From NCBI GenBank assembly GCA_029262035.1, contig JAJDAE010000296.1:182-64181 (forward strand): DNA of 64,000 nucleotides, read 5' to 3'. Below, piece after piece: positions 30,129 through 64,000 of this stretch; the first letter of the stretch is position 1, and every line of letters starts with the position of its first letter. The notes below the pieces were generated by a model that saw only the letters and a program-made list of their open reading frames with translations, was not told where the DNA came from and ran no database searches. The translations under genes were made by a program, and so were the position numbers. The stretch comes from Candidatus Zhuqueibacterota bacterium. GTDB taxonomy: Bacteria > Zhuqueibacterota > Zhuqueibacteria > Oceanimicrobiales > Oceanimicrobiaceae.

Positions 30129-31115
30129 ATGAAAAATATAACTTATTCTTTATTAGCACTTTTCCTTCTGGCAAATCATCAGACCGTCCACGCACAATTA
30201 ATTCCTGTTTTAGGCAGCCAACGTGCCGGTACTGCGATGGGACAATTCCTGAAGATTGGTGTAGGCGGAAGAGCAGTAGGTATGGGAGAAACTTTTGTAG
30301 CTGTAGCCAATGACGCATCAGCACTATTTTGGAATCCTGCCGGCGTGACCCAACTGGAGAAAAGTGAAATCACTTTTTCACATACTGAATGGCCGGTGGA
30401 TGTTCAGCATGAATTTTTTGGATATGTGCACAAGCTTAACGCACAGAGTTATCTTGGCGTGAGCGCAATTGTTTTGCACACGGATGATTTTGAAGAAACA
30501 ACAGAGTTCCAACCACTGGGAACGGGCAGGTTTGTATCCTTCGGAGATGCCGCCTTCGGTTTAACCTACGCGCGTAAAATGACCGACAGGTTCAGCGTAG
30601 GCTTAACGGTTAAATACATTGATGAGACTCTGGACAACCTGCATGCTAGAAATGTGTTCATAGATTTTGGTACATTTTTCTGGACCGGATTTGGCTCTTC
30701 ACGTTTCGCAATTGCAGTCACCAACTTCGGAACAAACATAGAGCCATCGGGAACTTTGCTACTTCGGGATGGCACAAAAATAACAGATTTCCAAGATTTT
30801 TCTCCGCCAACCATTTTCAGAATTGGTCTGGCAACGGAAGTTATAGACAATAGTTCGCACATGTTAACTACTTCAGTACAACTCAACCATCTAAACGACA
30901 ATGCAGAAAATTTTAATTTTGGATTGGAATACTGGTGGAACAAAATATTGGCGCTCAGAGGTGGTTACCGTCTTAATGTAGATGAAGAGTCCCTGGCATT
31001 TGGCGCCGGCTTAGCGCTTCCTCTACAACTAATTGACCTTAACCTGGATGTATCTTACACAGATTTCGGACAATTGGGAAGCGCGAGCAGATTCTCGGCA
31101 AGTATTAAATTTTAA
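30129..31115 (+). CDS. PorV/PorQ-family-like outer-membrane beta-barrel protein
   Basis: It has a signal peptide and the conserved N-terminal motif GMGETFVAVANDASALFWNPAGV, as I recall it for PorV/PorQ (and UPF0164) family barrels. It ends in F. Its start is 4 nt after the TBDT stop. Confidence 0.45.
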   Translation: MKNITYSLLALFLLANHQTVHAQLIPVLGSQRAGTAMGQFLKIGVGGRAVGMGETFVAVANDASALFWNPAGVTQLEKSEITFSHTEWPVDVQHEFFGYVHKLNAQSYLGVSAIVLHTDDFEETTEFQPLGTGRFVSFGDAAFGLTYARKMTDRFSVGLTVKYIDETLDNLHARNVFIDFGTFFWTGFGSSRFAIAVTNFGTNIEPSGTLLLRDGTKITDFQDFSPPTIFRIGLATEVIDNSSHMLTTSVQLNHLNDNAENFNFGLEYWWNKILALRGGYRLNVDEESLAFGAGLALPLQLIDLNLDVSYTDFGQLGSASRFSASIKF

Positions 31116-32249: not shown

Positions 32250-33986
32250 TTACTTCATCAGCAAAATTTTCTCAGTTTGAATAGTACCGCCGGCAGCCAA
32301 CTTGACAAAATAAACACCGCTAACCAACTGAGCCGCATCAAAAACTAAACTGTAGTCCCCCATTTCCCTGAAGTCATCCAACAGAATCCCCACTTCGCGG
32401 CCAAGTACATCGAATATTCTTATCGTAACATGACTGCCATGTACCACTGAATATCGAATCGTCGTAGAGGGATTGAAAGGATTGGGGTACGCAGGATAAA
32501 GAAAAAATTGTCGCGGTGTTTCAACCACGAAATCACCTTCAACACTAACCGGCCTTACTCCTGCAATATCTATTATCCTTGGTAAATGGTCAGAGGCATT
32601 ATTTGTATCCTGAGCCAACAGCCCGGCTGTACTCAACTCGTCGGCTGACATGGCCAATGTGTTCAAAACATAATGATTTCCAAGCTCAAGGATGCTGTCA
32701 GTAAACAGAAAATAATCCAGTTTACCCGGGCTGAAGGCACTGTTGTCATTACGCCAGGTGTATCCCATTCTGGCAGAAGTCTGTCTTGAAAATAGATCGG
32801 TCAGCGACGAGCCATCCCAATCCGGCGCAAAATCCTCACCATTATTGCTCTCATCACTTATATCGCCGTGCGTAAGGGTTCGTATCTGTAGTGAAGACCC
32901 TACAAGATTAAAATCTCCCAGATGAACCATCGGTGTATTTTCCGGAAGTTGAAATGGACCGCTTCCATCTCGCCACTCACGCAAGCGCATAATGATTTCA
33001 TCAGCATCTCGCTGCCGTGAAACATCATTGGCGCAGCAGCTCAAATGTGAATTCATCACCAGCAAATTTACACCCAATTCATCCGCCGTATTAAGCAACA
33101 CCACCATGGTACGCCCTGAGTTCGTCAATATTGCGGAATTAAGAATCGGGAAACGGGATACAACCATGTTGCCGTTTCCGAGCATGAGCGAATGAAAGTT
33201 TGAAGGTTGTAGCCACTTGCTCATCAATATTTCCACATCAGGTGCATCTCGCTGTTCCTGAAAAGCCATTATGTCTGGGCTCAGTGCTTTTATTATCCGT
33301 TCAAAAGCAGGCTGCCGATTGGCATTGCTAAGTCCACTGCCAAGGGTATTATAAGATAAAATACGCAAATGCTCAGGTCGCGATCTCGCTAAAGGAATTG
33401 CATCAGGTGGCTCAACCGGGGTTGTATCAATAATGTACTGAGCTCCACCAATATTGTCAGGCAAATAGTCGGCTTCATCTGAAGTAGCAAGCACTATAGC
33501 CAGGGTATCGGCGATTTGTGTGTTGTTAAGCGTAAGTGCCTGGCTAAAAAGACCAACTGCTATTTCAAAATCACGCGAAGTAATTGTTGGTGCACTGCGT
33601 AAGGTTAAATCATTTTGCCTGATTGCAACTGGCACCTGGTTTTGCCAGATAGAACCACTTCTACATCCAAAACACCATTCGATATCAGCGCCGATTCCAC
33701 GAAAGCTTCGACCAGTATTGCTATTATTGTCGACATCAATATAAAGCCTGATTCCATTAAAATCTTGCAATAGCTGCTCACTGCCATTAAATCCAAACTT
33801 CAAAAACAAAAAATCATTATCATTTGTAATTTTCAATCCGGAGAAATCTTCATCAAACCCATCCCCATCCGGGTCATCAAACTCAATTCCAATATTTTCC
33901 CAATCTTGAAAAAGACCATCAATGGTAATAGGATCACCTGCATAGGCTTCAACAAAAAAACAAAAAATGATAATAAATATGAACAT
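32250..33986 (-). CDS. Secreted endonuclease/exonuclease/phosphatase (EEP) family protein with a T9SS C-terminal domain
   Basis: It has a signal peptide and an N-terminal extra domain of about 190 aa. A central EEP domain follows (LRILSYNTLG ... MAFQEQ). The C-terminal CTD is YPAYPNPFNPSTTIRY...SGVYFVKL...KILLMK. Confidence 0.7.
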   Translation of the reverse strand: MFIFIIIFCFFVEAYAGDPITIDGLFQDWENIGIEFDDPDGDGFDEDFSGLKITNDNDFLFLKFGFNGSEQLLQDFNGIRLYIDVDNNSNTGRSFRGIGADIEWCFGCRSGSIWQNQVPVAIRQNDLTLRSAPTITSRDFEIAVGLFSQALTLNNTQIADTLAIVLATSDEADYLPDNIGGAQYIIDTTPVEPPDAIPLARSRPEHLRILSYNTLGSGLSNANRQPAFERIIKALSPDIMAFQEQRDAPDVEILMSKWLQPSNFHSLMLGNGNMVVSRFPILNSAILTNSGRTMVVLLNTADELGVNLLVMNSHLSCCANDVSRQRDADEIIMRLREWRDGSGPFQLPENTPMVHLGDFNLVGSSLQIRTLTHGDISDESNNGEDFAPDWDGSSLTDLFSRQTSARMGYTWRNDNSAFSPGKLDYFLFTDSILELGNHYVLNTLAMSADELSTAGLLAQDTNNASDHLPRIIDIAGVRPVSVEGDFVVETPRQFFLYPAYPNPFNPSTTIRYSVVHGSHVTIRIFDVLGREVGILLDDFREMGDYSLVFDAAQLVSGVYFVKLAAGGTIQTEKILLMK

Positions 33987-33996
33987 TGCGATTATC

Positions 33997-35298
33997 CTAT
34001 TTTAGCAGAAGCAATTTTTTTGATATGCTCTTCCCTCCCGCACTCAATGTATATACATAAATGCCGCTGCCTAATTCCTTGCCGTCAAAAATAACTTGAT
34101 ATTCTCCGGAGTTCTTATGTTCATCTGCCAATCTCGCTACTTCCTGCCCCAACAAATTAAAAACAGTCAGAGTTACAAAAGATGATTTGGTAAGCGAATA
34201 TTTTATTATTGTTGCGGGATTAAATGGGTTGGGAAAATTCTGTTGCAAACTAAATGATACAGGCTCTTGACTTCCTTCATTCACAGAAGTCGGGAATCCA
34301 AAGGCAAAATCGGAAACTACCGGCAGATGATCTGATGCCTTGTGAAGGGCATCTGCAACGCTGTCCGGAACAGAAAAGTTCGTTCCGGCATTGATAGCAA
34401 GGTTGAAGTGATCACTATCATTGCCAAACGCTTTATATGTTGCAGGCAGGATATCGATGCCACCACCACTTCTCATCGCATCTGAAACCAATATTATGTC
34501 AAAGCGATCATCCAACCCGCCGGTGGCACCGCCGCCAAAAGAGGTCGTTCTGGTAGATTGCGTATGAATAGAAATAAAAAAATTATTATTGTTCCAATTC
34601 CCGGCTTGGTTTATGGGATCAAACAACCGACCGTCGTTATCAGCCTGGTTTTCAGTTAATTTTATAAAAGCCGCTTCAGATGCAGATCTCATGTTGTAAT
34701 CGCCAACGAGCATAAAGTTTGAGTTAGAGGGCAACCCATTTAAATGGTTCCGAAGAAAAGTAGCCTGGTTTAACCTCTGTTGCTGATCTGAAGCCGACGA
34801 CCCGGCTTTCAAATGTGTAGAATAAATTGTGAACTCATGGCCAAATGCAAATAGCACATATTCCATTATATCACGAACGCCACTTCGGAGATTATTGGGA
34901 AAGGCCAGTAAAGTTACTTTGTCCTGATTATAAAAAAGCCCGCTATCCGTGTCTGGACCATCAAAAAAAGGCGCTGCCTGGTAAACAGCTTGTTTATGAT
35001 TCATGACCTGATTTAAAAGTGTCGAGACAGCTGCCTGACTTTCGATTTCCTGGACTACAAGAATATCCGGAGCCACAGCTTCGATGACTTTCCTCAAATC
35101 CCCAATCCGAGTTGCACCGTCTGCACTTGGAAATTTGAGTATATTATAGCTGGCGATCCGCAAGCTATCAACTTGGGCTTGAGTTTTGTGTACTGGAAAC
35201 AATACCAGACAGAACATTAGTAAGATAAGTTTAACCTGACATCCGTTATATTTAGAAAAAAAACTCATTGTTATCCTTTGTTTTATGTGAATTACCAA
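33997..35298 (-). CDS. Secreted EEP-family nuclease/phosphatase with a T9SS C-terminal domain; paralog of the previous gene
   Basis: EEP domain (LRIASYNILKF ... ILVVQEIES) plus a CTD (NFPNPFNPATIIKYS...SGIYVYTL...KLLLLK). The signal peptide starts at the internal Met (MSFFSK...). Confidence 0.7.
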   Translation of the reverse strand: MVIHIKQRITMSFFSKYNGCQVKLILLMFCLVLFPVHKTQAQVDSLRIASYNILKFPSADGATRIGDLRKVIEAVAPDILVVQEIESQAAVSTLLNQVMNHKQAVYQAAPFFDGPDTDSGLFYNQDKVTLLAFPNNLRSGVRDIMEYVLFAFGHEFTIYSTHLKAGSSASDQQQRLNQATFLRNHLNGLPSNSNFMLVGDYNMRSASEAAFIKLTENQADNDGRLFDPINQAGNWNNNNFFISIHTQSTRTTSFGGGATGGLDDRFDIILVSDAMRSGGGIDILPATYKAFGNDSDHFNLAINAGTNFSVPDSVADALHKASDHLPVVSDFAFGFPTSVNEGSQEPVSFSLQQNFPNPFNPATIIKYSLTKSSFVTLTVFNLLGQEVARLADEHKNSGEYQVIFDGKELGSGIYVYTLSAGGKSISKKLLLLK

Positions 35299-39158: not shown

Positions 39159-40115
39159 ATGGACATAATCAAAAAAACTATTTCAGTCTTATTGAGAGAC
39201 TACCTAAAAGTTCAAGCTGATGAGGCTATCACTTTTTTAGGGCATGAAAAACATTCCGAACTTCTTGAAGTTGCATGGAAGGCCGGGAAAAGACTAACAA
39301 AAAACGTTCTCTGCGTCAAATACTCCGAAGCAAATTTAACTGCCACACAAAACGGATTTATTAGAAGTATTTGTGAACCTCTTCTTACTTCTAAAACTTC
39401 GATTTTCTTTGCAAATGACTCTCTCGATGAAACACATTTTTCTGATGCACTTTTGCAAAACTCCAGAATTATAATTATTCAAAATATACCTGCTTTGTTA
39501 AAAGGTAATTTTTTGATATCGGACTCAAAAAGAATTGTTCGAAAAAGCAGGAAGTTAGCTGACCTTTTTACAATCGGGAAAACGTTCAGCCTCTCTTCTC
39601 CATCAGGGACTGACATTCAGATCGATATTTCAAAATCAAATGGAGTTGCACATACTGGAATTCCCGGAGAGCCTTCACAAATTGTATTGCTCCCATCCGG
39701 AGCAGCCAGCATCAATTTAACAAAAAGCAGTCTTAATGGAAAAATTATTCTCGACCGGATTGCCGGGATAAGTAAAAAACTGAATACACCAATTACTTTA
39801 TATGTAAACAACAATCAAATCTCTCAAATCAAAGGCGCTACAGAAGCTGAAGCACTCAGAAAAAGCCTAAGAAAATTCGGTAAGGACGGTCGCACTATAA
39901 CTCAAATGGGTGTAGGAACAAACGATTTCATTAAGCTTGGGTATTCAGATTCTGAGGATGAAAAACATGCCGGTTCCGTTTATTTTATTCTGGGAGAAAA
40001 TCAAGTCACCAAAATACATGGGAAAATGCTCAAAGCCGTTAAAGGCCTGCTTTTAAAACCAACACTTTCCGTGGATGGAAAGTTACTGGTTAAGGACGGA
40101 AAAATTCTTGTTTAA
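39159..40115 (+). CDS. Putative aminopeptidase, M29/AmpS-like; low-confidence assignment
   Basis: The C-terminal half has spacing that resembles the M29 catalytic domain (GTDIQIDIS, GIPGEPSQI, GRTITQMGVGTN, EKHAGSVYFILGEN). The N-terminal domain is divergent. Confidence 0.35.
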   Translation: MDIIKKTISVLLRDYLKVQADEAITFLGHEKHSELLEVAWKAGKRLTKNVLCVKYSEANLTATQNGFIRSICEPLLTSKTSIFFANDSLDETHFSDALLQNSRIIIIQNIPALLKGNFLISDSKRIVRKSRKLADLFTIGKTFSLSSPSGTDIQIDISKSNGVAHTGIPGEPSQIVLLPSGAASINLTKSSLNGKIILDRIAGISKKLNTPITLYVNNNQISQIKGATEAEALRKSLRKFGKDGRTITQMGVGTNDFIKLGYSDSEDEKHAGSVYFILGENQVTKIHGKMLKAVKGLLLKPTLSVDGKLLVKDGKILV

Positions 40116-52195: not shown

Positions 52196-52801
52196 AACCT
52201 CCCTTTTTCAATCTGAAAATGAATTAGTTGTTTTTGAGAATCTATAGTTCTTATATTAAAAAAAAATTGGGATACTATCAAAACCAACTCAATATTTATA
52301 TTGAGTTTTAGTTGATTGTGCAGTAATTGAAGCAATATATGGGGCATGTGTAAATGATATTTTAACATTTACAGAAATTATCAGAAATTTGGACAACTAA
52401 TTTATGTATTTCATAAGAAAAAGAATGAATGAACGATTCATTACTATTGATAAGTGAAATTATTATAATGTAATCGTTTTTAAAAGTCAAGAAAAAGTTG
52501 CTTGACTGAATAGTTGTTCAATTGACGACAAAAAATATGGCAAATTATGGCATATAAGTTTTCAAACATGGCCCAATGTAGGTATATATTATTTTAACTA
52601 ACGCCTACGCTCGATGTTAAAATACTTCGGGAGATAAAACCACTAAATGTTAAAATACTTTAACTCTGTTTCACCAATAAGCTCTTGACTATCAAGGTTT
52701 TTAATTGTATTTTCATGCCTTAAACTGAACGATTATCGACCACTTTTACAACTACTTTACGGAAATTGCTTCACAGTGTCACACCATATTCTGACTCAAA
52801 A

Positions 52802-53752
52802 ATGAACAACGACAACAATATGAAAACAATTCTTGTCGTTGATGATGTTCCTGTAAACATACAATTATTATCGACTTACCTTTCTTCCGAAGGCTATACG
52901 ATAATATCTGCGAAGGACGGGCAGCATGCATTGGACATGGTTTATGAAAATACCCCGGATCTGGTTCTGCTTGATGTTATGATGCCAAAAATTAATGGGT
53001 TTGAAGTTTGTAAAAAATTAAAATCATCGGAAGATACTAAATTTATACCGGTTATTATGCTAACAGCGTTAAATGACCTGGAAAATAAAATAAAAGGCAT
53101 GGATTCCGGGGCTGATGATTTTATTACCAAACCCTTTAACCGAATGGAGCTTCTTGCCCGAGTTCGCTCTCTTCTCCGCATAAAATATTTGCACGATGAA
53201 TTACAAAAAAAGATAATCGAACTCCAAAGTACAAAAGAAGAGCTCAGGCAGCTTTCAATTACAGATGGATTAACCGGTTTATACAATTACAGATATTTTA
53301 AAGAGCAGTTTACCCAGGAAATAAGTCGTGCATTGCGGCATGCTCTCAACGTCTCTTTGATTATGATTGACATAGACCATTTCAAAAATTTTAATGACCA
53401 AAATGGGCATCCTGCCGGAGACAGAGTGTTACAAGAACTGGGCTCTCTCTTAAAAAGTAATATTCGTAATATCGACATGGCTGCCAGGTATGGCGGCGAA
53501 GAATTTACCTTAATTTTAATCGAAACCGATAAAAATTCTGCACTAGTTGTAGCAGAAAAAATCAGAAAATTAATCGAAACGAATAAATTTCATCACGAAG
53601 AAAAGCAACCTCTCGGTAAAATTACAATAAGCAGCGGCTTGTCAACATTCCCTGAAGATGGTCATGACTTTAGTACTTTAGTAGAAAAGGCGGACCAAAG
53701 ACTATACAGGGCAAAACAAGCCGGCAGAAATATTCTGTTTGCAGATTCATAA
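52802..53752 (+). CDS. Response regulator with a GGDEF diguanylate cyclase output (PleD-like)
   Basis: REC domain (ILVVDDVP ... LLDVMMPKINGFE ... TKP) plus a GGDEF domain (DHFKNFND ... RYGGEEF). I place the start at the internal ATG at 52802. The track ORF starts at a TTG at 52766. Confidence 0.8.
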   Translation: MNNDNNMKTILVVDDVPVNIQLLSTYLSSEGYTIISAKDGQHALDMVYENTPDLVLLDVMMPKINGFEVCKKLKSSEDTKFIPVIMLTALNDLENKIKGMDSGADDFITKPFNRMELLARVRSLLRIKYLHDELQKKIIELQSTKEELRQLSITDGLTGLYNYRYFKEQFTQEISRALRHALNVSLIMIDIDHFKNFNDQNGHPAGDRVLQELGSLLKSNIRNIDMAARYGGEEFTLILIETDKNSALVVAEKIRKLIETNKFHHEEKQPLGKITISSGLSTFPEDGHDFSTLVEKADQRLYRAKQAGRNILFADS

Positions 53753-53763
53753 AAGGGGAATTT

Positions 53764-55272
53764 ATGAAGCTAACTTTTTTTGCTAACAAATCGTTGGACC
53801 GAAAATTATTTGTAATAATTTTCGTGGCTACACTTTTGCCAGTTTGCTTTATGGTAGGACTTTCATTTAAAATATCTGCCAATTCGGGATCCAATATATT
53901 CAATTCACCTTTGATGTACCTCGTGCTTGTGTCTATGGTCTTAGGGCTTTCCTTTGGCGTAACCACAATACTCAGCCATTTAATTACAAAGCCGCTGAAC
54001 AGCTTCATTAAATCCGCAACAGAAATAGCCCGAGGAGAACTTTCCAAAAAAATTGTGGTGACTCCACAAAAAGAATTAGGCAAACTAGCCTGGCTTTTTA
54101 ATTATATGGTAGAAGATCTTAGAAGAGCCAAAGATGTCCACAAAGTAAGTGAGAGACTTCTCGAAAAAGAAAAGATTGAGACTATTCTTAAAAGTACAGC
54201 AGACGGTATTATCTTAACAAATGAGAAAGCGCGGCTTCTTCTTGTAAACCCGATTGTTGAAAAATGGTTTGACATTAAGCATGATAAGGTTGAAGACATT
54301 GCGTTGAAAAAAGTAATACAACACGAGAATCTAAACAGCCACCTGGCTGCCTTTACTAATACACCGGATTCGAAAGATAAAAATTACGAAATCATTTTAC
54401 AAGATGAAAATAGTAATAAGCAAAGAGTTCTTCAGGTAAAGTCGGTAAAGGTTCATGACAAACAAACGGGCAAATTAAACTCCGTAGTTACGGTTTTAAG
54501 AGATATTACTCGGGAAAAAGAGATCGACCGACTCAAAACCGAACTTGTCTCCATGGTTGCTCACGAGCTACGCTCACCACTAACCTGTATCTCCGGTTTC
54601 AGCGAGCTCTTGCTTGATGATTCAGTAACTAAAGAGCAGTCCGGAGAATATGCCAATATTATTCTGAAAGAATCAAATCGACTCAATGATCTTATCAACA
54701 AATTTCTTGACATATCAAAAATTGAATCCGGTAAAAGCCAGTTAAACAAAAGCCCGGTAGATATGAAAATGTTAATAGAAAAAGTTCTCGATTTCAATTC
54801 GCAGCTTGCTCAAAAGAAGCAAATTAAAGTGAAATTTGAAGCACCGAAACAAATTTTAGCAATCGAAATAGACCGAAATATGATTGAACAGGCCATTTTG
54901 AATCTTTTTTCAAACGCAGCTAAATACAGTCCTGAAAGCGCAACAATCAAAGTACGGCTCAATGTAATTGAAGATAAAATAATTCTTGATGTTGAAGATA
55001 CAGGTTACGGCATCTCCCCGAACTCACTTCCACGTATCTTTGACAAATTTTTCCGTGTTTCTGACAATGACAATGTTGTTGACATTGAAGGCTCGGGCCT
55101 CGGCTTACCCCTGGTAAAAGAAATCGTTGAAATCCATGGTGGGAAAATTCTGGTAAAGAGTGAACTTGGTAAAGGCTCCAAATTCACAATTTCCTTACCT
55201 TACAGTAACAACCTATCGGAGTCAACAGAGGATTTTGCCAGAGTTGAATATGAAACTGAAACCCCAATTTAA
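53764..55272 (+). CDS. Sensor histidine kinase with HAMP, PAS, HisKA and HATPase domains
   Basis: It has a transmembrane segment and HAMP domain, the H-box AHELRSPL, an N-box, and the G-boxes GSGLGL. Confidence 0.8.
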   Translation: MKLTFFANKSLDRKLFVIIFVATLLPVCFMVGLSFKISANSGSNIFNSPLMYLVLVSMVLGLSFGVTTILSHLITKPLNSFIKSATEIARGELSKKIVVTPQKELGKLAWLFNYMVEDLRRAKDVHKVSERLLEKEKIETILKSTADGIILTNEKARLLLVNPIVEKWFDIKHDKVEDIALKKVIQHENLNSHLAAFTNTPDSKDKNYEIILQDENSNKQRVLQVKSVKVHDKQTGKLNSVVTVLRDITREKEIDRLKTELVSMVAHELRSPLTCISGFSELLLDDSVTKEQSGEYANIILKESNRLNDLINKFLDISKIESGKSQLNKSPVDMKMLIEKVLDFNSQLAQKKQIKVKFEAPKQILAIEIDRNMIEQAILNLFSNAAKYSPESATIKVRLNVIEDKIILDVEDTGYGISPNSLPRIFDKFFRVSDNDNVVDIEGSGLGLPLVKEIVEIHGGKILVKSELGKGSKFTISLPYSNNLSESTEDFARVEYETETPI

Positions 55273-55332
55273 CTTAAAGTTATACCCTTAAGCTGTTCTA
55301 TTGAGCATTAAGGGTAAAAAAAACAACCAATA

Positions 55333-57231
55333 ATGGAAAGACGGCGTACAATCTTATTTGTCGATGATGACGAGGATATGCTGGAAATTGGCGGCATTAT
55401 TCTAAGAAAAGCAGGGTATACTTACGTCCCGGCTGACTCCGCAGAAGTTGGTCTTGAAATCCTTCTAACCCAAAAACCAGATCTCATAATTCTTGATTAT
55501 TTCATGCCCGGGTTAAATGGATATGAATTTTTTCAAACCTTAGTTAAGAATGTCAAATATCATAGTGCTAAAGATATTCCGGTAATAATGCTCACTGCTG
55601 CTTCGGAACAGGATGTCGAACGCCAACAATTATTTGAATTAGGCTTAAGCGCCTTCCTCCAAAAACCATTCGGCAATAGGGAGTTACTAAATGTTATCGA
55701 GAACGTTTTTATTCTCAATGATTTACAACTCGAGAATAAAAAACTTGAGGAGCAGATAAAAAGAACAGAGTATAAATACCAGGATTTAATTGAAAATGCG
55801 AGCGATTTAATTTTCACTCTCGATCCGGAAGCACGTTTTGTTTTTATAAATCGACGCTTAAAACAAATATCCGGCTTTGATAGAGAAAAATGGATTGGTA
55901 AAAAATGCATTGAAATAATTCATAAGGAGGATATTGAAAAATCCAGAGAACATTTATCCAAAGCAATTAACGGCAAATCCAGAATTTTTGAAACTCGCCT
56001 GAATCTGAATGGAAGTAAAAGCATTTATCTATCCATAAACTGCAACCCTATCTTTGAAAAAGGCCAGGTCGTGGGCTGTGTTGCAATAGCCCGGGATATT
56101 ACTGAAGAAAAAATGTTAGAGCAAGAAATTGTTGAGCTCAAAAATTTCAATGAAAGTATCATTCAAAGTATGGGCTCGGGGTTACTTACAATCAACCTCA
56201 ATAACACGATAACTTCTTTTAATAACAGCGCTACAGAAATTTTGGGATATGCTCCGGATGAAATTGTGCACAAAAGACTTCAGGATATTTTCCCGGAAGA
56301 AGATTGTGAAAAAATTCTGGAAAATGTTAAAAGTCCCCAGCAAGGTCTTTTAAATCGTGAAATGCCATTAACAGCGAAAAATGGTAAGCCCATCTTTATT
56401 GGTTTTTCAGTCACCCCGAGGTACGACACAAAAAACCACCGGGTCGGTACAATAATATCTTTTAAAGATATCAGTCAAATTAAACATATGCAAACTGAAG
56501 TTCAAAGAATGGATAGATTGGCATCGATGGGTGTATTGGCATCGGGTATTGCACATGAAATCAGAAATCCTTTAGCCGGCATTAAAACAATAGCTCAGAC
56601 CTTGGAAGAAGAAATTGAACATAGTGACCACAAACGTGAGTACGTCTCAAGAATTGTCAGACAAGTTAATCGCATGGATGATCTTCTCAAAACAATTTTT
56701 TCGTATGCGAAGCCAAGAGAACCCAAACTAAAATATCATCGTTTGAATGAAATTATATATGAAGTTTTCGCCCTGCTTGAAAACCGAATGAAAAAACAAT
56801 CTATAAAGTATCAAAGTTTTTTTCACGAAGAGTTACCATTGATATACGTTGATTTCTATCAAATTCAGCAGGTGTTCATTAATTTATTTTTAAATGCTCT
56901 CGACGCAATGCCGGATGGCGGCACGCTGCAGCTAGAGGCAATTCCAAAAGTCACAACTCTTAACCGCTTGGATCGCAGAGGCAGAGCCTTTCCTGTTCAA
57001 AATGAAAGCTCCCTTTTTGTAGATGTTACTTTGCAAGACTCCGGAATTGGAATTTCTGAAGAAAATTTATCTTCGATTTTCAATCCTTTCTTTACAACAA
57101 AACCACAAGGCTCAGGATTAGGATTGTCAATCGTCTACCAAATTGTAACCGAACACAATGGAGACATTCAGGTAGAAAGTGAACACGACAAAGGAACCAC
57201 TTTCAAATTACTTTTACCTACGGAGGAATAA
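55333..57231 (+). CDS. Hybrid response regulator and histidine kinase, with an N-terminal REC, PAS domains, HisKA and HATPase
   Basis: N-terminal REC (ILFVDDDEDML ... ILDYFMPGLNG), PAS repeats, the H-box GIAHEIRNPLAGI, and an HATPase with GSGLGLSIV. Confidence 0.8.
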   Translation: MERRRTILFVDDDEDMLEIGGIILRKAGYTYVPADSAEVGLEILLTQKPDLIILDYFMPGLNGYEFFQTLVKNVKYHSAKDIPVIMLTAASEQDVERQQLFELGLSAFLQKPFGNRELLNVIENVFILNDLQLENKKLEEQIKRTEYKYQDLIENASDLIFTLDPEARFVFINRRLKQISGFDREKWIGKKCIEIIHKEDIEKSREHLSKAINGKSRIFETRLNLNGSKSIYLSINCNPIFEKGQVVGCVAIARDITEEKMLEQEIVELKNFNESIIQSMGSGLLTINLNNTITSFNNSATEILGYAPDEIVHKRLQDIFPEEDCEKILENVKSPQQGLLNREMPLTAKNGKPIFIGFSVTPRYDTKNHRVGTIISFKDISQIKHMQTEVQRMDRLASMGVLASGIAHEIRNPLAGIKTIAQTLEEEIEHSDHKREYVSRIVRQVNRMDDLLKTIFSYAKPREPKLKYHRLNEIIYEVFALLENRMKKQSIKYQSFFHEELPLIYVDFYQIQQVFINLFLNALDAMPDGGTLQLEAIPKVTTLNRLDRRGRAFPVQNESSLFVDVTLQDSGIGISEENLSSIFNPFFTTKPQGSGLGLSIVYQIVTEHNGDIQVESEHDKGTTFKLLLPTEE

Positions 57232-57236
57232 TTTCT

Positions 57237-58604
57237 ATGCCAAAAGCGAGTATTCTGATAATTGAGGACAATGAAGATCTTTGCCAGACACTTGCAGATG
57301 TATTAAAAAAAGATGGCAATAAAGTAACGACTGCGTTTAAAGGTAAAGATGGTCTGGGAATTCTGGAAAAAGATATTATCGATCTGGTTTTACTGGATAT
57401 CAAATTACCGGATCTCAATGGCATACAAATTTTGCAGACAATCAAAGACAAAGACCCGGATATACTCGTTATAATGATTACCGCGACTACAGACGCACGC
57501 CCTGCCATAGATGCTATGAAAATGGGAGCATACGATTATTTGATGAAACCGTTTGATTTGGTCCAACTCAAATTAGTAATTGCAAAGGCGCTTGAAACAC
57601 AGAACTTAAAAAAAGAAGTCTCCCGGCTAAAGACACAACAGCGCGAAAAATTTCCCGACAATGAAATGTATGGGGAAGCCAAACCGATGCAGGAACTAAA
57701 AAAGCTGATAAAAATTGTGGCAGCAACTCCGAAAACATCCGTTCTCATTCAAGGTGAAAGCGGTACTGGCAAGGAACTCGTATCCGATGCCGTACATAAT
57801 TGGAGTGCACGCAAGGACAAACCCATCGTCAAAATAAACTGTAGCGCCATTCCTGAAAATTTGCTCGAAAGTGAGCTGTTCGGCCACGAGAAAGGCGCTT
57901 TTACAGATGCCAAATACCTGAAGAAGGGCATTTTTGAAATGGCCAATAATGGCACAATTTTCCTTGATGAAATTTCAAACATGCAAATGTCAATTCAGCC
58001 AAAGTTTTTACGGGTATTGGAGACCCAATCATTTCGTCGAATTGGTGGCACCTCCGACATAAATGTGGATGTCAGAATTATTGCAGCCACAAACCGTAAC
58101 CTGGAAGATTGCGTTGAAGCCCAGACTTTTCGCGAAGATTTATATTATAGATTAAAAGTAATGGTACTAAACATCCCAGCCTTACGAGAAAGAATTACCG
58201 ACATCATTCCACTTGCCATGTTATTTATTGAAAGAAATAACCGCGAGTTTGGTAAAAACATAAAAGGGATATCTGATGAAGCTGCTGAAAAAATGTTATC
58301 CTATCAGTGGCCTGGAAATGTGAGAGAACTAAAAAATGTTATTGAGCGTGCAGTTATTTTATGTTACGATGACCAATTGCAATCAGAACATTTACCTCTG
58401 GAACTCCTAGCTGGAAAATCCAAAATCACGACTTCAAATCAGTTTGGGGCTTTGCTTGAAGATGATGATTCTCTAGAAGAAATGGAACGGCGCCATATAA
58501 AGCTAGTCCTTGAAAAATATGATGGCAATAAATCAAAAACTTCAAGAATGTTAAATATATCACGGTCTACCCTACGTGAAAAAATGAAAAACTATGGCAT
58601 ATAG
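57237..58604 (+). CDS. Sigma54-dependent Fis-family response regulator (NtrC-type enhancer-binding protein)
   Basis: REC domain followed by an AAA+ sigma54-activation domain (GESGTGKELVS ... ESELFGHEKGAFT, the GAFTGA motif) and a C-terminal HTH. Confidence 0.85.
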   Translation: MPKASILIIEDNEDLCQTLADVLKKDGNKVTTAFKGKDGLGILEKDIIDLVLLDIKLPDLNGIQILQTIKDKDPDILVIMITATTDARPAIDAMKMGAYDYLMKPFDLVQLKLVIAKALETQNLKKEVSRLKTQQREKFPDNEMYGEAKPMQELKKLIKIVAATPKTSVLIQGESGTGKELVSDAVHNWSARKDKPIVKINCSAIPENLLESELFGHEKGAFTDAKYLKKGIFEMANNGTIFLDEISNMQMSIQPKFLRVLETQSFRRIGGTSDINVDVRIIAATNRNLEDCVEAQTFREDLYYRLKVMVLNIPALRERITDIIPLAMLFIERNNREFGKNIKGISDEAAEKMLSYQWPGNVRELKNVIERAVILCYDDQLQSEHLPLELLAGKSKITTSNQFGALLEDDDSLEEMERRHIKLVLEKYDGNKSKTSRMLNISRSTLREKMKNYGI

Positions 58605-58798
58605 CAATTGGTTGATTATCGGCCACCCTGTATTGATTTTATTCCATATTTTTGATATCTAAATATAAGATCCTCCTGTAGTTATTCCGTATATTTCTGC
58701 TCTATTGTCAACTTTAGGGTCAAGATTTCCTTTCCTCCTGACGAATCAAACTAAAACATCGACAAACTGACTTTGTCATTTAGACATTGAAGTTATTT

Positions 58799-58814
58799 TG
58801 GTATACCTTTTGCA
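58799..58814 (+). promoter_or_regulatory. Sigma54 (-24/-12) promoter: TGGTAT-N5-TTGCA
   Basis: Seen directly: TGGTATACCTTTTGCA, with GG and GC separated by exactly 10 nt as in the TGGCAC-N5-TTGCW consensus. It lies 44 nt upstream of the REC-DUF4388 start and directly downstream of the sigma54 activator gene. Confidence 0.5.
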
Positions 58815-58854
58815 TTTTACCACCATGTATAATTGTTGCATCGGAGCTTACGTG

Positions 58855-59523
58855 ATGATAGAGAAAAAAAGAATTTTGATTGTGGATGATGAAGAAGATA
58901 TTACATGGGCTATATCAAAAAATCTAACAAACGCTAACACCAATTTAGAAATAAAATGTGTCCATGATGGTGACACAGCTTACAACTTATTAAATAACCA
59001 AACCTTCGACCTTGTTGTCTCCGACGTAAGAATGCCAGGCAGAGACGGTTTCCAACTCATGCTTGATATTCGCAAAAAAAGTCCTGTAACAAAAATTATA
59101 TTAATGACGGCCTATGGCTCTCAGGATATTATGAAAAAGGCCGATACTTTTGGCAGTTATTTTTATATCGAAAAACCATTTGATATTGGTTACTTAAAAC
59201 AACTTGTATTTGATGCGCTTGAAATTGATAAAACAGGTTTTGTAGGTCATCTCGACAAAGCCGGGCTTGGAGAGTTAATTGAGGTAAATTGTTCATCCAA
59301 GAGCAATTCGCAGTTGACTGTGACCAGCCAAAATGGAATCGGCACAATCTATTTTAAAAATGGTGATGTCATTCACGCTGAATGCGGTGACTTAAAAAGT
59401 GAAAGAGCTTTTTATAACATTCTGAATTGGAATACTGGGACATTTAAAATTACCGGACAGGGCAACAATACGCAAAGATCAATTTTTAGAGACTGGAAGA
59501 CTCTTTTGCACCAAAGCTCTTAG
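58855..59523 (+). CDS. Response regulator receiver fused to a DUF4388 domain
   Basis: REC (ILIVDDEEDI ... VVSDVRMPGRDG ... KP), then a C-terminal DUF4388-like region (GHLDKAGLGELIEV ... GTIYFKNGDVIHAECGDLKSERAFYNILNWNTGTFKI). I place the start at the GTG/ATG at 58855-58858, after a GGAG RBS. The track ORF begins at a TTG at 58798, inside the sigma54 promoter. Confidence 0.6.
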   Translation: MIEKKRILIVDDEEDITWAISKNLTNANTNLEIKCVHDGDTAYNLLNNQTFDLVVSDVRMPGRDGFQLMLDIRKKSPVTKIILMTAYGSQDIMKKADTFGSYFYIEKPFDIGYLKQLVFDALEIDKTGFVGHLDKAGLGELIEVNCSSKSNSQLTVTSQNGIGTIYFKNGDVIHAECGDLKSERAFYNILNWNTGTFKITGQGNNTQRSIFRDWKTLLHQSS

Positions 59524-59546
59524 GGTAGTAAAAAAGGATTTTTACT

Positions 59547-60356
59547 ATGTCAGAAATTATCGCAATCGCGAGTCAAAAAGGTGGGGTTGGCAAAACAACT
59601 ACGGCCGTTAACCTTGGAGCTAGTTTAGCATCCTTAGGAAAAAAAATACTGCTGGTAGATATTGACCCGCAAGGCAGTGTTTCAGCAAGTTTTGGTTATA
59701 CTCGTTACGACATTAACGCCGGTGTCCTCGATATATTTTTAACCGACACCCCAATCCGCGACACTATCCACCCTACAGGTCAACACAACTTCGAATTTAT
59801 CCCCACAAATTTATGGTCGGATGAAAATGACCGCCGGAAACTTATCGGCATCACTTCAAAAAATAAATTAAAAGAAGAATTGGCTAAAATTCGGCATGAG
59901 TATGATTTTATTCTTATTGATTGCCCTCCCTCTTTAGGTAATCTCACATTTAACGCATTAATTTCTGCAGACTCATTAATAATCCCCATTCAATGCGAAT
60001 ACTATGCTTTAAAGGCATTGGGCAGGTTCCTAAAGTTAACCAGAATCATAAAACACGAAAATAATCCCAATTTACAATACCGCGGGTTTCTTCTTACCAT
60101 GGTAGATCTTCGAAATAATTTAACAAAAGTTGTGATGGAAAAAATCCGATATACTTTACAAGGTTTGGTCTTTGATACAATTATTCCAAGAAATATCAGA
60201 CTGGCAGAAGTCCCTTATTATGGTGAACCGGTTATTAGTTTTGACAAGAATTGCAAAGGCGCCCAAAGCTATCTTGATTTGGCACGAGAAGTTTTGCAAA
60301 AAGAGGACAACCAACCCCACATAGTTGACGATAATACAAAAGTAGAAGTTATCTGA
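59547..60356 (+). CDS. Orphan ParA/Soj-family (MinD-like) P-loop ATPase
   Basis: It has the deviant Walker A (KGGVGKTTTAVNLG) and Soj-like motifs (LLVDIDPQGS, LIDCPPSLG, IIPIQCEYYAL, IPRNIRLAEVPYYGEP). No parB is adjacent. Confidence 0.8.
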   Translation: MSEIIAIASQKGGVGKTTTAVNLGASLASLGKKILLVDIDPQGSVSASFGYTRYDINAGVLDIFLTDTPIRDTIHPTGQHNFEFIPTNLWSDENDRRKLIGITSKNKLKEELAKIRHEYDFILIDCPPSLGNLTFNALISADSLIIPIQCEYYALKALGRFLKLTRIIKHENNPNLQYRGFLLTMVDLRNNLTKVVMEKIRYTLQGLVFDTIIPRNIRLAEVPYYGEPVISFDKNCKGAQSYLDLAREVLQKEDNQPHIVDDNTKVEVI

Positions 60357-60363
60357 GTATCAC

Positions 60364-60747
60364 ATGCAAAAAGTCTTGATTGTAGACAACAACACGCACG
60401 CAAAGAACGGTTTATCCGAAATATTAACCGACGAAGGATATCTAGTCGATGTGGCGCCAAATGCAACGGTGGCGCTTTCGTTAGACATTTCCAACTATAA
60501 TGTTCTCATTACTGACCAAAACCTAACAGATTTATCAGGTCTTGAATTAGCCAATAGAGTGAACGCAATAAATCCGAATATTGAAGTAGTAATTATTACA
60601 TCATTTCAAATTCAAGACTGGCAGAATAATCCAGATTATTTATGCCTTACTAAACCACTGGAAGTAGATTTTCTTTTGGATTCACTACAAGATAAACTGA
60701 CCCCAGCATTCGAGAATAGTATAGCGCAGGAGACGGACGGTAGATGA
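60364..60747 (+). CDS. Atypical single-domain receiver protein
   Basis: It has the receiver fold with a phospho-acceptor Asp (LITDQN), a Thr/Ser (ITS) and a Lys (TKP). The N-terminal acidic pair is DN (LIVDNN) instead of DD. Confidence 0.5.
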   Translation: MQKVLIVDNNTHAKNGLSEILTDEGYLVDVAPNATVALSLDISNYNVLITDQNLTDLSGLELANRVNAINPNIEVVIITSFQIQDWQNNPDYLCLTKPLEVDFLLDSLQDKLTPAFENSIAQETDGR

Positions 60748-61430
60748 TTTTATTTTGGACCAAAACTGCTAAGAAACTAGCTTTTATAATCGTGATGGCT
60801 CTAATGTTCATGTCCATGATCAATTTTACTTCTGACATAAAAAAAATGGAAGAAGATAAAGCAAACGTAGGCCATTTAGCAAAAAAGATTTCTGACATAC
60901 AGAGTTTTTTAAAAGAAGATTCTGTAAGAACTGCAGCTTTAGAAAAAATAGACTCGATAATGTCTAGGTATAATCGCAGGTTATCTCAACAGGAAAAATA
61001 CCTGATTGCTAATGAAATTTATAATATGAGTATTAAATACGAAAATCTGGACATCGATCTAATTTGTGCTACTATTACTCACGAGAGCGCGCGAACCTGG
61101 CGACCAACCATTGTTTCCCCGGCTGGGGCGTTGGGACTCATGCAAATTATGCCAAACACTGGTAATTTTCTCAGTAAACATGAGGGTATTAAATGGACAA
61201 AACCAAAAGAAGTTTTGTTCAACCCAATATATAATATTCGTATGGGGTGTCGTTATCTCTCTATGCTTGTTGAATTATACCATATTGATGGCGGCTTAGC
61301 TGCCTATAACGGAGGGGAGAGACGTGCTGCCAAATGGCTTGCAAACGGCAGAAACGATGATGTTTTGTTTGAAGAGACACGCGGCTATGTGCCCGCTGTA
61401 CTCAAACTATATGACACGTACAAAAACTAA
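60744..61430 (+). CDS. Membrane-anchored lytic transglycosylase (SLT domain)
   Basis: N-terminal transmembrane anchor. The SLT catalytic region is ITHESARTWRP ... GALGLMQIMPNTG ... AAYNGGERRAAKW. Its start overlaps the preceding stop (ATGA). Confidence 0.7.
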   Translation: MILFWTKTAKKLAFIIVMALMFMSMINFTSDIKKMEEDKANVGHLAKKISDIQSFLKEDSVRTAALEKIDSIMSRYNRRLSQQEKYLIANEIYNMSIKYENLDIDLICATITHESARTWRPTIVSPAGALGLMQIMPNTGNFLSKHEGIKWTKPKEVLFNPIYNIRMGCRYLSMLVELYHIDGGLAAYNGGERRAAKWLANGRNDDVLFEETRGYVPAVLKLYDTYKN

Positions 61431-61438
61431 GATTAATA

Positions 61439-63187
61439 ATGATGGGCGATGTAAAACAACAAGAAAAGGAATTCTATTGTGAGCTGGTAAATCGGTTTTT
61501 CAATGAAAACAGTTATTTCTTTCATTGTATTAATCATGAACTGGATGGCGTTTTAACCGAAACAAAAGATGTTGACAATGAAATTTACCTAATGCTTGGC
61601 AATTTTTTTGATAAACTTATTTCCAAAGAAGATGTGGCAGCGGAGTTGGAGAGCTTAAAGCAAGGTAATGAATTCTTCGAATTTGTCGATAAATTAGAGC
61701 AGAGTGTATCATTTCTCCATAATAACGAACTTGATACAGAACGGATGAAAATAGAAATCGAAGGACTCGCTCATTCAATGTTCAACAGCGCTCTTTTGGC
61801 ATTTCAAACACCGAGCACTACCACTCAATCTAAAAACTATTTGAACAACGATGAGGTTGGGTCAGAGAAAATTAAAGAAACTGGGATATCAGAGCTGTCT
61901 TCTACTGAACCTGTTAATGTGGAATCCGGGATTTTCTCGGATGAAACTGAAAGCTTAAAAGAAAGCCAGGGAAATGCAGATGAAAAGGATTTTCATCTGG
62001 AGGCTGAACTTGACAAGGATGTTAGGCTTACGGGTGGGCTGAATAACAGAAGAAGTATTGAAGACAGCTCTGATATTCCACTAAAAGACAAACATCTTAC
62101 GCCACAGCCAGCCAGCTTTCTTTCTGTGTTCATCATAGAAACCAAGCAAAAAATTGATTCCTTAAATAAAATAATTCAGAAAAAGAACATAACGAACAAA
62201 AGCTGGAAGGAATCTACGGATATTATTGATTCTATAATGATGTCTTCAGTAATTTATGGTTTTGAGGCATATGAGCAAATCGCAGTAAAATCCAAGAAAC
62301 AGCTCAAAAAATATATTTCATCCGCTCAGTTCAAGGAAGCTAGAGTCCTACTTGAAGGAACCATCGACAACCTAAATTCACTGGTTGAAAAAAATGATCC
62401 TGAAAACGTAAACCAAACGTTTATTAAAAATGCTACTGAGAAACTATTAACTTCTCAAAATAACCAATCTGAATCTTCAGTGGCGGCATTAACTGTAGAA
62501 AAAACAGCTCACCCAGAAAAAAAAAGACCAACTAAGCAAGCAATAGAAATTTCTGATGATATTGCTCCTCCACAGGATGTCATACAAATAAAAATCCCGG
62601 GGGAGGATGATGAGGAAATTCATAGCTTAATTGCAGAAATTTCCAAAGAGTCTGCATTAATCCAACCCGCTTGGAATTCAGAACAAACAGTAACCCCGGA
62701 GCCCCGGTTTGAAACCGAAGAAGCCATACGGGTTAACGCGCCAAAACCTGTTGAGGATAAAACTTTTTCTCTCTACAGACAACAGGCAGAACTCTACTTT
62801 AGCGTAATCGAAGAAGCACTAATTACACTTGAAAGGCAGCGACGTAATAAAACTGCACTTGAAGACTTGGAACTGGCCTCTAACGCACTATACGGACTTT
62901 CACTCAAATTAAACTTAGACCCAATCGGTAAATTTCCGGATCTCATTCTAACATTAATAAAAAATATTCTCGCAACCAACTATACAATAACCGAAAAAGA
63001 TCATGCCTTAATTAGCAAAGGATTTAGCTATTTCAAAAGCCTGGGAAATTTAGAAGAATTGGACGAAGGTAAATTTAATGAGATCATAAAAGCTATTATC
63101 TCATTTGATAAACAAGTGAAAAATCAAGCCTCCCACGATGCTGATTTCATGGCCTATCCTCCTTCAGGGCGAATAGGTTTTGCTTAA
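61439..63187 (+). CDS. Hypothetical acidic protein
   Basis: 582 aa, rich in Glu and Lys, with predicted helical and coiled-coil segments. Two segments are weakly Hpt-like but lack the conserved His. No confident homology. Confidence 0.45.
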   Translation: MMGDVKQQEKEFYCELVNRFFNENSYFFHCINHELDGVLTETKDVDNEIYLMLGNFFDKLISKEDVAAELESLKQGNEFFEFVDKLEQSVSFLHNNELDTERMKIEIEGLAHSMFNSALLAFQTPSTTTQSKNYLNNDEVGSEKIKETGISELSSTEPVNVESGIFSDETESLKESQGNADEKDFHLEAELDKDVRLTGGLNNRRSIEDSSDIPLKDKHLTPQPASFLSVFIIETKQKIDSLNKIIQKKNITNKSWKESTDIIDSIMMSSVIYGFEAYEQIAVKSKKQLKKYISSAQFKEARVLLEGTIDNLNSLVEKNDPENVNQTFIKNATEKLLTSQNNQSESSVAALTVEKTAHPEKKRPTKQAIEISDDIAPPQDVIQIKIPGEDDEEIHSLIAEISKESALIQPAWNSEQTVTPEPRFETEEAIRVNAPKPVEDKTFSLYRQQAELYFSVIEEALITLERQRRNKTALEDLELASNALYGLSLKLNLDPIGKFPDLILTLIKNILATNYTITEKDHALISKGFSYFKSLGNLEELDEGKFNEIIKAIISFDKQVKNQASHDADFMAYPPSGRIGFA

Positions 63188-63215
63188 GATCACAAACTAC
63201 CAAGGTTAAACAGCA

Positions 63216-64000
63216 ATGGCAAATAACTCAGATACAGACAAAGAACTCGAAGCAGTTTTAGGATCGCATAAAACATCAATTAAAATTGTAGGTGCCGGTG
63301 GCGCCGGTAATAACACGGTGACGCGCTTGCTTGAAGTCGGTGTTAAAGATGTCGATGTAATCGCAGTAAATACCGATGCCCAGGATTTACTTTTCGCTAA
63401 AGCTGATAGCAAGATTCTCATTGGCAAAACCATAACTAACGGGCTGGGCGCTGGTAGTGATCCATCAAAAGGCAATGAGTCAGCAAAGGAAAACATCGAA
63501 GAAATTGAAAACGAACTTCAGGGCAGCGACATGGTTTTTATCACCTGCGGACTCGGTGGTGGAACTGGTACGGGTTCAGCACCGGTAATTGCAGAAGTTG
63601 CAAAAAAGCTCGATGCTCTAACGATCGCTGTGGTTACCCTTCCCTTTAGCGATGAAGGCATTGTCCGGCTTGAAAATGCACGTAAAGGCCTGCAGCAATT
63701 GCAGAAAAATGTAGATACCGTAATAGTTGTCCAAAACGACAAACTGCTTGACCTTGTACCTGACATGCCGCTCAATCAGGCATTTAAAGTCGCAGATGAA
63801 ATCCTTGTCAACACGGTTAAAGGCATCACTGAACTCGTCACTGAAAAAGGTCTGGTAAACCTTGATTTTGCAGATGTTCGTACAATTATGCAGGATGGCG
63901 GCATAGCAATGATCGGCTTTGGCGAGAGTAAAGATATGGAAGCTGAAGAAGCTGCAGAACAAGCATTACAAAATCCCTTACTTGATGTAGAAGTAGATGG
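63216..64000 (+). CDS. ftsZ: Cell-division GTPase FtsZ; N-terminal roughly 260 aa, continuing past the window end
   Basis: My own translation gives MANNSD...[78 protein letters not shown] and [10 protein letters not shown]. These are the tubulin/FtsZ GTP-binding (GGGTGTG) and T7 motifs. It is absent from the ORF track because of truncation. Confidence 0.85.

Follow-up and report, generated by a model that had tools for sequence, protein, structure and literature searches.

A sigma-54 operon of candidate division KSB1 and related bacteria encodes an archaeal-FtsZ1-like FtsZ fused to a predicted His-less CheA-P1/HPt-like domain

The DNA analyzed here is a 64,000-nt stretch (referred to below as the window) of a Candidatus Zhuqueibacterota genome (GenBank assembly GCA_029262035.1, contig JAJDAE010000296.1, positions 182 to 64,181), and our subject is the gene set at its downstream end, which runs on the forward strand from a predicted sigma-54 promoter into an ftsZ gene. 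Behind a block of signaling genes closed by the gene of an NtrC-type enhancer-binding protein (EBP), this set encodes a response regulator with a receiver (REC) and a PATAN (DUF4388) domain, a Soj-type ParA ATPase, a stand-alone REC protein, a lytic transglycosylase of the SLT family, a 582-aa acidic protein and FtsZ (Table 1). On sequence comparison, the GTPase core of this FtsZ is closer to archaeal FtsZ1 than to bacterial FtsZ. In profile and structure-model comparisons, its C-terminal extension holds a domain resembling the P1 or histidine phosphotransfer (HPt) domain of CheA without the phospho-accepting histidine, and the same comparisons show such a His-less P1-like domain to be common to three consecutive gene products.

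All the genes that an initial reading of the letters and open reading frames (ORFs) had listed (the sequence-only reading) were found again when the window proteins were searched with Pfam. The exception in detail is the first gene of the set, which had been read as a 241-aa ORF from a TTG codon at 58798; that ORF overlaps the promoter, and the real start is the ATG at 58855 (222 aa), with a GGAG 8-9 nt upstream. Neighboring operon genes lie 7-28 nt apart or share 4 nt, and a scan of the operon revealed no convincing terminator inside it. The window ends inside ftsZ, and contig L001, which is identical to the window and runs past its end, supplied the complete 543-aa FtsZ, a 187-aa protein encoded downstream of it, guaB and rpsT. 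Together with fusA, guaB and rpsT make up the flanking housekeeping genes.

Table 1. Features of the operon and of the signaling block upstream of it (window coordinates unless a protein position or another contig is named).
Feature	Position	Strand	Basis or remark
REC-GGDEF response regulator (diguanylate cyclase)	52766..53752	+	Pfam; opens the conserved signaling block upstream of the operon
HAMP-PAS histidine kinase	53764..55272	+	Pfam; orthologs in nearly all loci
REC-PAS-PAS-HisKA-HATPase hybrid histidine kinase	55333..57231	+	Pfam; directly upstream of the EBP gene
NtrC-type sigma-54 EBP, REC-AAA+-HTH_8	57237..58604	+	Pfam (REC, Sigma54_activat, HTH_8), NCBIfam
Imperfect palindrome TGGTTGATTATCGGCCA	58609..58625	.	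Candidate enhancer or EBP site (putative function)
Sigma-54 (-24/-12) promoter TGGTAT-N5-TTGCA, TGGTATACCTTTTGCA	58799..58814	+	Motif scan; predicted transcription start near 58825
REC-PATAN (DUF4388) response regulator, 222 aa	58855..59523	+	Pfam
Soj-type ParA ATPase (ParA/MinD superfamily)	59547..60356	+	Pfam
Stand-alone REC protein	60364..60747	+	Pfam; alignment
SLT family-1 lytic transglycosylase with N-terminal hydrophobic membrane anchor	60744..61430	+	Pfam; translation
582-aa acidic scaffold-like protein	61439..63187	+	No Pfam match; AlphaFold2 (AF2) model
Helical N-domain of the 582-aa protein (orphan)	aa 3-136	+	AF2
His-less P1-like domain 1 of the 582-aa protein	aa 227-338, window 62117-62452	+	AF2, Foldseek, hhalign
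Invariant PGEDDEE motif of the 582-aa protein	aa 387-393, window 62597-62617	+	Alignment
P1-like domain 2 of the 582-aa protein	aa 441-570, window 62759-63148	+	AF2, Foldseek, hhalign
ftsZ, first 261 of 543 codons (the window ends inside the gene)	63216..64000	+	Pfam; full gene L001:11778-13409

The FtsZ scored 413.2 bits against the TIGR00065 equivalog model (cut-off 295.2), and the fragment inside the window alone scored 165.6 bits against Pfam Tubulin. The glycines of the G-box GGGTGTG (G114-G118 and G120) and the T7-loop residues N215, D217 and D220 (N-x-D-x-x-D) are invariant in 44 family members, and the protein presumably polymerizes. Its closest solved relatives are archaeal, with 383 bits for FtsZ1 of Methanocaldococcus jannaschii (M. 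jannaschii) and 278 bits for the best bacterial FtsZ in a search of the PDB. Over the core, identity was 55.7% to M. jannaschii FtsZ1 (325 columns), 43.0% to E. coli FtsZ and 43.5% to a Lachnospiraceae FtsZ, while M. jannaschii FtsZ1 and E. coli FtsZ are 47.5% identical to one another. The likeness to archaeal FtsZ1 (PDB 1FSZ/1W58) covers the closest solved core, with the nucleotide-binding motifs and the T7 loop present. The present FtsZ differs in that its host is a bacterium of the Fibrobacteres-Chlorobi-Bacteroidetes (FCB) group, that a C-terminal extension of ~200 aa brings a P1-like domain and a terminal peptide of its own, and that the gene belongs to a sigma-54 operon containing a peptidoglycan hydrolase.

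Beyond the core, the protein continues with a disordered linker, the P1-like domain (aa 379-505), a second disordered stretch and a conserved terminal helix (aa 532-542). AF2 modeled residues 379-505 as five helices with a pLDDT of ~92. The conserved family terminus reads V-[RK]-E-A-V-K-Y-F-D-K-L-[LF] and differs from the canonical D-I-P-x-F-L-R-type tail to which FtsA, ZipA or SepF binds. This full architecture is found in over 120 clusters of FtsZ proteins 540-670 aa long, with named members from KSB1, Calditrichaeota/Calditrichota and "Bacteroidetes bacterium". The gene had first been taken for a plain ftsZ, a description that its archaeal-FtsZ1-like core and fused His-less domain do not allow; the C-terminal domain was hidden from that reading because the window covers just the first 261 of the 543 residues.

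The assignment of the C-terminal domain to the CheA P1/HPt fold draws on several comparisons. Pfam Hpt (PF01627) matched it with 26.0 bits (cut-off 24.6), a profile built from 25 sequences matched P1 of Salmonella CheA (1i5n) at E=5e-9, and NCBIfam aligned the domain to residues 9-108 of CheA. Altogether, four copies were recognized, one in FtsZ, two in the 582-aa protein and one in the downstream 187-aa protein. In hhalign, the FtsZ domain paired with the middle and C-terminal domains of the 582-aa protein at probabilities of 92% and 97%, respectively, and with the N-terminal part of the 187-aa protein at 88%; the middle domain of the 582-aa protein paired with the 187-aa protein at 97%. The likeness to CheA P1 and HPt domains (PF01627; 1I5N, 3KYI) consists of a four-helix bundle plus a fifth helix, with target-normalized TM values up to 0.79-0.81. 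What sets the present domain apart is that all four copies have other residues in place of the phospho-accepting histidine and that it is joined to FtsZ and to proteins that are not kinases, rather than to a kinase.

In the alignments, the histidine that accepts the phosphoryl group (the column of CheA His48, in helix B) is kept in none of the four copies. In FtsZ, this column holds Ser in 65, Thr in 17 and Ala in 7 of 117 sequences, so that 82 of 117 have Ser or Thr, and His is outside the eight commonest residues. In the 582-aa protein, Asp or Glu occupies the column in the middle domain (16/19) and Asn, Ser or Glu in the C-terminal domain, and the downstream protein is variable. The acidic residue of the middle domain may mimic phosphorylated P1.

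The 582-aa protein (pI 4.78) has no Pfam or NCBIfam match and is all-helical with disordered acidic linkers. AF2, run on a 16-sequence alignment, gave confident helical domains at aa 3-136, 227-338 and 441-570. The best Foldseek match of the model was 3kyi, the complex of CheA3-P1 bound to CheY6 (target-normalized TM 0.79, rmsd 2.8 Å), and further matches were 1i5n and other HPt proteins. Remote matches of the sequence profile are CheA/ChpA-type kinases with multiple Hpt domains. For the first of the three helical domains, no credible Pfam or PDB sequence match was found. The sequence-only reading had drawn a parallel with ATPases that work with coiled-coil partners, such as PomX or PomY; AF2, Foldseek and hhalign instead resolve it into an orphan helical N-domain and two P1-like bundles, and it is its fold and its lack of a Pfam or NCBIfam match, rather than a direct sequence comparison, that set it apart from PomX and PomY. 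An exhaustive profile search of 1.84 billion proteins recovered 97 cluster representatives of the family at E<=1e-30, and a word index gave ~20 homologs, the named ones being "candidate division KSB1".

Two further observations concern these domains. The remote P1 relatives P0263, P0276 and P0281 include giant CheA-type kinases, one of them 4858 aa long with 15 Hpt domains. In the 582-aa protein, a short helix comes after the invariant PGEDDEE motif, with disordered stretches on either side, and on its sequence PGEDDEE looks like a short linear binding motif for some partner.

The ParA protein has the deviant Walker A motif KGGVGKT (within QKGGVGKTT) and a conserved Arg-containing DLRNN segment. 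Among its solved relatives, 8ray ("ParA family protein") ranks first with 225 bits, Soj follows with 172 and 163 bits, and MinD comes after these; the protein lies below every NCBIfam equivalog cut-off and scored 48.5 bits over part of the MipZ model (PF09140) versus 180.7 bits against AAA_31. The gene sits inside the operon in 10 of the 12 loci covering its position, and no ParB-type gene was detected near it in the Pfam-annotated loci. The sequence-only reading had seen in it an orphan ParA at the center of an FtsZ-positioning system, a function assigned by analogy. It does stand without a nearby parB, but the operons of loci L008 and L011 lack it, and ParA is therefore not the defining component; it may be the chromosomal soj.

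This bears on the possibility of a ParA-centered system of the PomXYZ (Myxococcus) or MipZ (Caulobacter) type, in which ParA would form the center and position FtsZ as its client, the 582-aa protein would be the cargo or scaffold that activates the ATPase, and the P1-like domains would be incidental. Such systems share with the present operon an ATPase of the ParA/MinD superfamily without an adjacent parB, a large multidomain partner and a link to FtsZ, and both the intact motifs and frequent presence of the ParA and a scaffold with long disordered acidic linkers and several interaction domains would suit them. In PomXYZ and MipZ, however, the link to FtsZ is functional, whereas the present ATPase is of the Soj type, some operons do without it, and its partner proteins have no detectable relation to known families. 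FtsZ itself is moreover encoded in this operon and carries the common docking domain, together with receivers and a sigma-54 switch. Loci L008 and L011 retain SLT and FtsZ without ParA, the resemblance to MipZ is limited to the superfamily, and the 582-aa protein is built of helical bundles, not of coiled coil. As the conserved receivers and the common P1-like domain would also be left unexplained, we consider a ParA-centered positioning system unlikely.

The REC-PATAN regulator matched REC (PF00072) with 82.6 bits at residues 8-119 and PATAN/DUF4388 (PF14332) with 48.8 bits (cut-off 25) at residues 132-220. Its phospho-acceptor pocket is canonical, with the DD/D/T/K residues kept in 10 orthologs; the PATAN half has no solved relative by sequence. 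The stand-alone REC protein, present in 8 loci and elsewhere absent or reduced to a 65-aa remnant, had been described as an atypical receiver, which holds for this genome, where DNN replaces EDD, but not for the family, whose other members are canonical. The transglycosylase matched PF01464 with 68.3 bits, and the motifs THESARTW (E-S), GALGLMQ and AAYNGG can be read in its translation.

To follow the operon across genomes, we gathered 16 distinct loci by protein look-ups and one metagenome scan and annotated them by phmmer, with the window proteins and the E. coli proteins of the division and cell wall (dcw) cluster as queries. The carriers are candidate division KSB1, Calditrichota and related metagenome-assembled genomes. 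Across these loci, the order is histidine kinases, NtrC, REC-PATAN, ParA, (REC), SLT, 582-like protein, FtsZ and P1-like protein, and it persists down to 44% identity of FtsZ and 17-22% identity of the 582-aa protein. SLT and FtsZ form an invariant pair, SLT lying upstream of ftsZ in every locus covering the position, whereas ParA is missing from L008 and L011, REC-PATAN from L016 and L017, and the 582-like gene from L011. None of the dcw genes mraZ, ftsI, murC-G, ddl, ftsQ and ftsA occurs in the 64-kb window, and no E. coli dcw protein had a phmmer match within 10 kb of ftsZ in the 16 loci. The G+C content of the operon (0.36-0.44, versus 0.41 for the window) indicates a native base composition. 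Comparative sequence data of this kind show an operon that has been vertically inherited together with a conserved, predicted sigma-54 promoter.

The neighborhood conservation that the sequence-only reading had asked to be checked is thus borne out, as are its placement of ftsZ outside a dcw context and its view of a tightly packed, same-strand set under sigma-54 control ending in ftsZ, which corresponds to a conserved operon behind a footprinted promoter. Since the order is conserved and relatives show no dcw context, neither of the two comparative outcomes named at the time as fatal to the proposal has come about. The same data speak to the possibility that the genes have no common function and are united by local synteny only, with ParA being the chromosomal soj and ftsZ displaced from the dcw cluster. 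ParA is indeed close to canonical chromosomal ParA/Soj proteins, and the flanking guaB, rpsT and fusA are housekeeping genes. Order, strand and minimal spacing are nevertheless kept in 16 loci while the flanks vary, one domain family extends across three consecutive gene products, and a single conserved sigma-54 promoter precedes the set. Because these comparative data already contradict it, we regard an accidental assemblage as very improbable.

Two other origins were considered and rejected. A flagellar or pilus-type cluster might combine sigma-54 control, a MinD-like ATPase and SLT; no flagellar or pilus gene was present in any locus. Recent horizontal acquisition is rejected because the G+C content of the operon matches that of the window and the synteny with guaB and rpsT is old.

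Some loci depart from the common arrangement. L011 (7983-12631) is a reduced variant with just REC-PATAN, SLT and a 667-aa FtsZ, and a group II intron maturase fragment lies downstream of it. In L023 (1-5285), the operon is folded back, with the 582-like gene and a gene for a 406-aa FtsZ on one strand and SLT, REC and ParA on the other. This FtsZ, P0109, apparently without a P1 domain, was not accepted as a true variant; the contig resembles an inverted chimeric assembly of the operon, and the L023 arrangement is probably such a chimera.

The promoter itself needs comparative support. The element at 58799-58814 is the only TGGYAY-N5-TTGCW match in the window, but at least one match also occurred in 31 of 100 shuffles, so a single match is not significant and the motif by itself proves little. 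In a TGGYAY-N5-TYGCN scan, a -24/-12 element was found upstream of the first operon gene in 13 of 13 distinct orthologous loci covering the region, with just 17 matches on both strands across 313 kb of loci. These 13 include L007, which has no adjacent EBP gene, and L016 and L017, in which ParA is the first gene. The alignment of the NtrC-to-operon intergenic region, with a mean identity of 45%, has TGG-A-N5-TTTGC as its sole invariant block. The GG and GC dinucleotides are 10 nt apart, the element has the correct place and orientation, and an EBP gene is adjacent. On this phylogenetic footprinting, the sigma-54 promoter call is well supported, and the TGGTAT-N5-TTGCA promoter of the sequence-only reading lies where it had been placed.

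The intergenic alignment has a second conserved island, a palindrome family with the consensus TGGTC-N5-7-GACCA. In the window, this palindrome begins 5 nt past the NtrC stop codon and 190 nt upstream of the -24 element; the spacing is 190-203 nt in at least seven loci (L001, L003, L009, L007, L015, L018 and L005, the last taken from the intergenic alignment). It is kept in L007 although the EBP gene is not adjacent there, and its sequence and position make it a candidate enhancer or EBP binding site.

The signaling genes follow the operon as well. The EBP gene adjoins it in 12 of 13 distinct loci covering the position, and in each of the 12 distinct loci that have the EBP block and extend far enough, the EBP gene is immediately preceded by a hybrid histidine kinase gene. 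The REC-GGDEF gene holds the same place in L001, L003, L005 and L011. Because the position of this block is conserved, the locus may also link to, and feed into, cyclic di-GMP signaling. The whole of the REC-GGDEF and two PAS histidine kinase genes (52766-57231) is conserved in position, as is the operon. In L015 (11275-15096), a second pair of hybrid histidine kinase and NtrC-type regulator follows the operon, replacing the guaB of other loci.

Docking of CheA P1 and HPt domains on receivers is established, with 3kyi, 2lp4 and 1oxb as structural examples. Response regulators with a PATAN domain serve as outputs of CheA-type systems (bioRxiv 10.1101/2021.06.11.447907), and PatA of Anabaena interacts with proteins of the divisome (PMC7380572). 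On these grounds, we propose that receivers dock on the P1-like domains of this operon, and the best overall reading, to which we give a probability of about one half, is that of an FtsZ module, induced by a signal, that serves septation or wall remodeling and in which the receivers dock on pseudo-P1 domains. A signal perceived by the upstream PAS/HAMP histidine kinases would be passed to the adjacent NtrC-type regulator, which would turn on the sigma-54 promoter. The pseudo-P1 domains would have lost phosphate relay and retained docking onto receiver domains, so that REC-PATAN and REC, depending on their phosphorylation state, would bind FtsZ and the multivalent scaffold. Receiver binding would then set the time and place of FtsZ filament assembly, the nucleoid-bound ParA may help to place the scaffold relative to the nucleoid, and SLT would cut glycan strands, opening the sacculus at the chosen site. 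From the evidence set out here, we infer that REC docks on P1, that ParA takes part in positioning, where SLT acts and that the module is accessory.

Several points weigh against this proposal: (i) some loci (L008, L011, L016/L017) lack one or more of ParA, the stand-alone REC, REC-PATAN and even the 582-aa protein, so the roles proposed for them are not essential everywhere; (ii) the P1-like bundles could bind one another, or the ATP-binding domain of a histidine kinase, instead of receivers; (iii) additional promoters may lie inside the operon; (iv) the archaeal-like call consists of best hits and pairwise identities in a comparison set without a canonical FtsZ of the FCB group; and (v) accessory status, as a deduction, leans on sigma-54/EBP dependence, on the missing canonical C-terminal peptide and on parsimony within the FCB group.

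FCB bacteria are expected to retain ftsA and ftsZ in a dcw cluster. Because of this expectation, the EBP-dependent promoter and the non-canonical tail, we lean toward the module being a conditional, additional FtsZ machine, for septation or envelope remodeling, rather than a part of housekeeping division. The opposite case is that the P1-fused, archaeal-type FtsZ is the sole FtsZ of KSB1 and Calditrichota and has replaced the dcw-linked ftsZ. The 582-aa scaffold, the small P1-like protein and the partner of the C-terminal peptide would then replace anchoring of the FtsA/ZipA type, and the two-component control through sigma-54 would convey cell-cycle or growth-rate information. The FtsZ passes the equivalog model with invariant catalytic residues. 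The family is large, vertically inherited and of native base composition, and its place on the chromosome, beside guaB and rpsT, is constant. A second FtsZ appeared neither in the 64-kb window nor in the loci, whose coverage of only ~20 kb per genome cannot show the absence of a second ftsZ. Such a replacement would mean, however, that bacterial FtsZ had been displaced by a homolog without a tail for FtsA or ZipA, which would be unprecedented, and that an essential gene relied on an EBP-activated promoter ~4.4 kb upstream. We hold sole-FtsZ status to be possible but doubtful.

A more far-reaching version of the accessory proposal, which we offer only tentatively and would judge doubtful to a similar degree, is a docking code derived from chemosensory systems. 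Receivers would read decoy P1 domains on the archaeal-type FtsZ and on the scaffolds, thereby switching both assembly and peptidoglycan cleavage, and the result would be an inducible second machine beside the classical divisome.

FtsZ is known to be regulated by positioning ATPases (Min, MipZ and PomZ), by nucleoid occlusion and by small inhibitors. Machinery built on FtsZ together with accessory regulators is a known kind of system, and one component of the present operon appears new. The PATAN regulators (Anabaena PatA; Synechocystis PixG, TaxP1 and LsiR) likewise combine PATAN with a phosphorylatable receiver, but their order is PATAN-REC where it is REC-PATAN here, the regulator of this operon is encoded with FtsZ instead of pilus or heterocyst genes, and a CheA kinase is absent from this locus. 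Like FtsZm of magnetotactic bacteria and FtsZ1/FtsZ3 of Hyphomicrobiales, the present protein may be an additional, non-dcw FtsZ with an altered C terminus. Secondary FtsZ paralogs of bacteria are recent duplicates of bacterial FtsZ and usually truncated (bioRxiv 10.1101/2025.09.29.679267), whereas the present protein is archaeal-FtsZ1-like and extended, and is accompanied by regulatory and wall-cleaving genes of its own. The literature searched, two papers on FtsZ evolution included, yielded no account of an operon of this kind or of a fusion between FtsZ and HPt, in agreement with the earlier impression that the system had not been described.

The fusion of FtsZ to a His-less P1 domain suggests an undescribed route by which two-component signaling is wired to a tubulin-like cytoskeleton; if true, a receiver-docking module on FtsZ would be a new and direct one. 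The operon also offers a small, defined set of components from which the system might be reconstituted: FtsZ-P1, the scaffold and its two P1-like domains, a small P1-like protein, two receivers, ParA and SLT. An evolutionary question is how, by transfer or by retention, an FtsZ1-like protein came to be present in a large set of FCB bacteria and whether it coexists with canonical FtsZ or replaces it. Coexistence, if true, would point to a new class of accessory FtsZ machines, and replacement, if true, would be the first case of bacteria that divide by means of an archaeal-type FtsZ without the FtsA-binding tail.

Elsewhere in the window, a purine riboswitch (RF00167, 45.9 bits) lies at 20262-20367 (+), directly upstream of a 713-aa ORF (20473-22614) without a Pfam match. 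Downstream of this ORF are proteins with a tail for the type IX secretion system, including Exo_endo_phos nucleases at 32250-33986 and 33997-35298 (minus strand), and a PorV-like protein is encoded in the same region at 30129-31115. Two other ORFs, at 25718-27166 (482 aa) and 39159-40115 (318 aa), had no Pfam match at E<=1e-5. The riboswitch region may be a locus for scavenging extracellular nucleic acids or purines.

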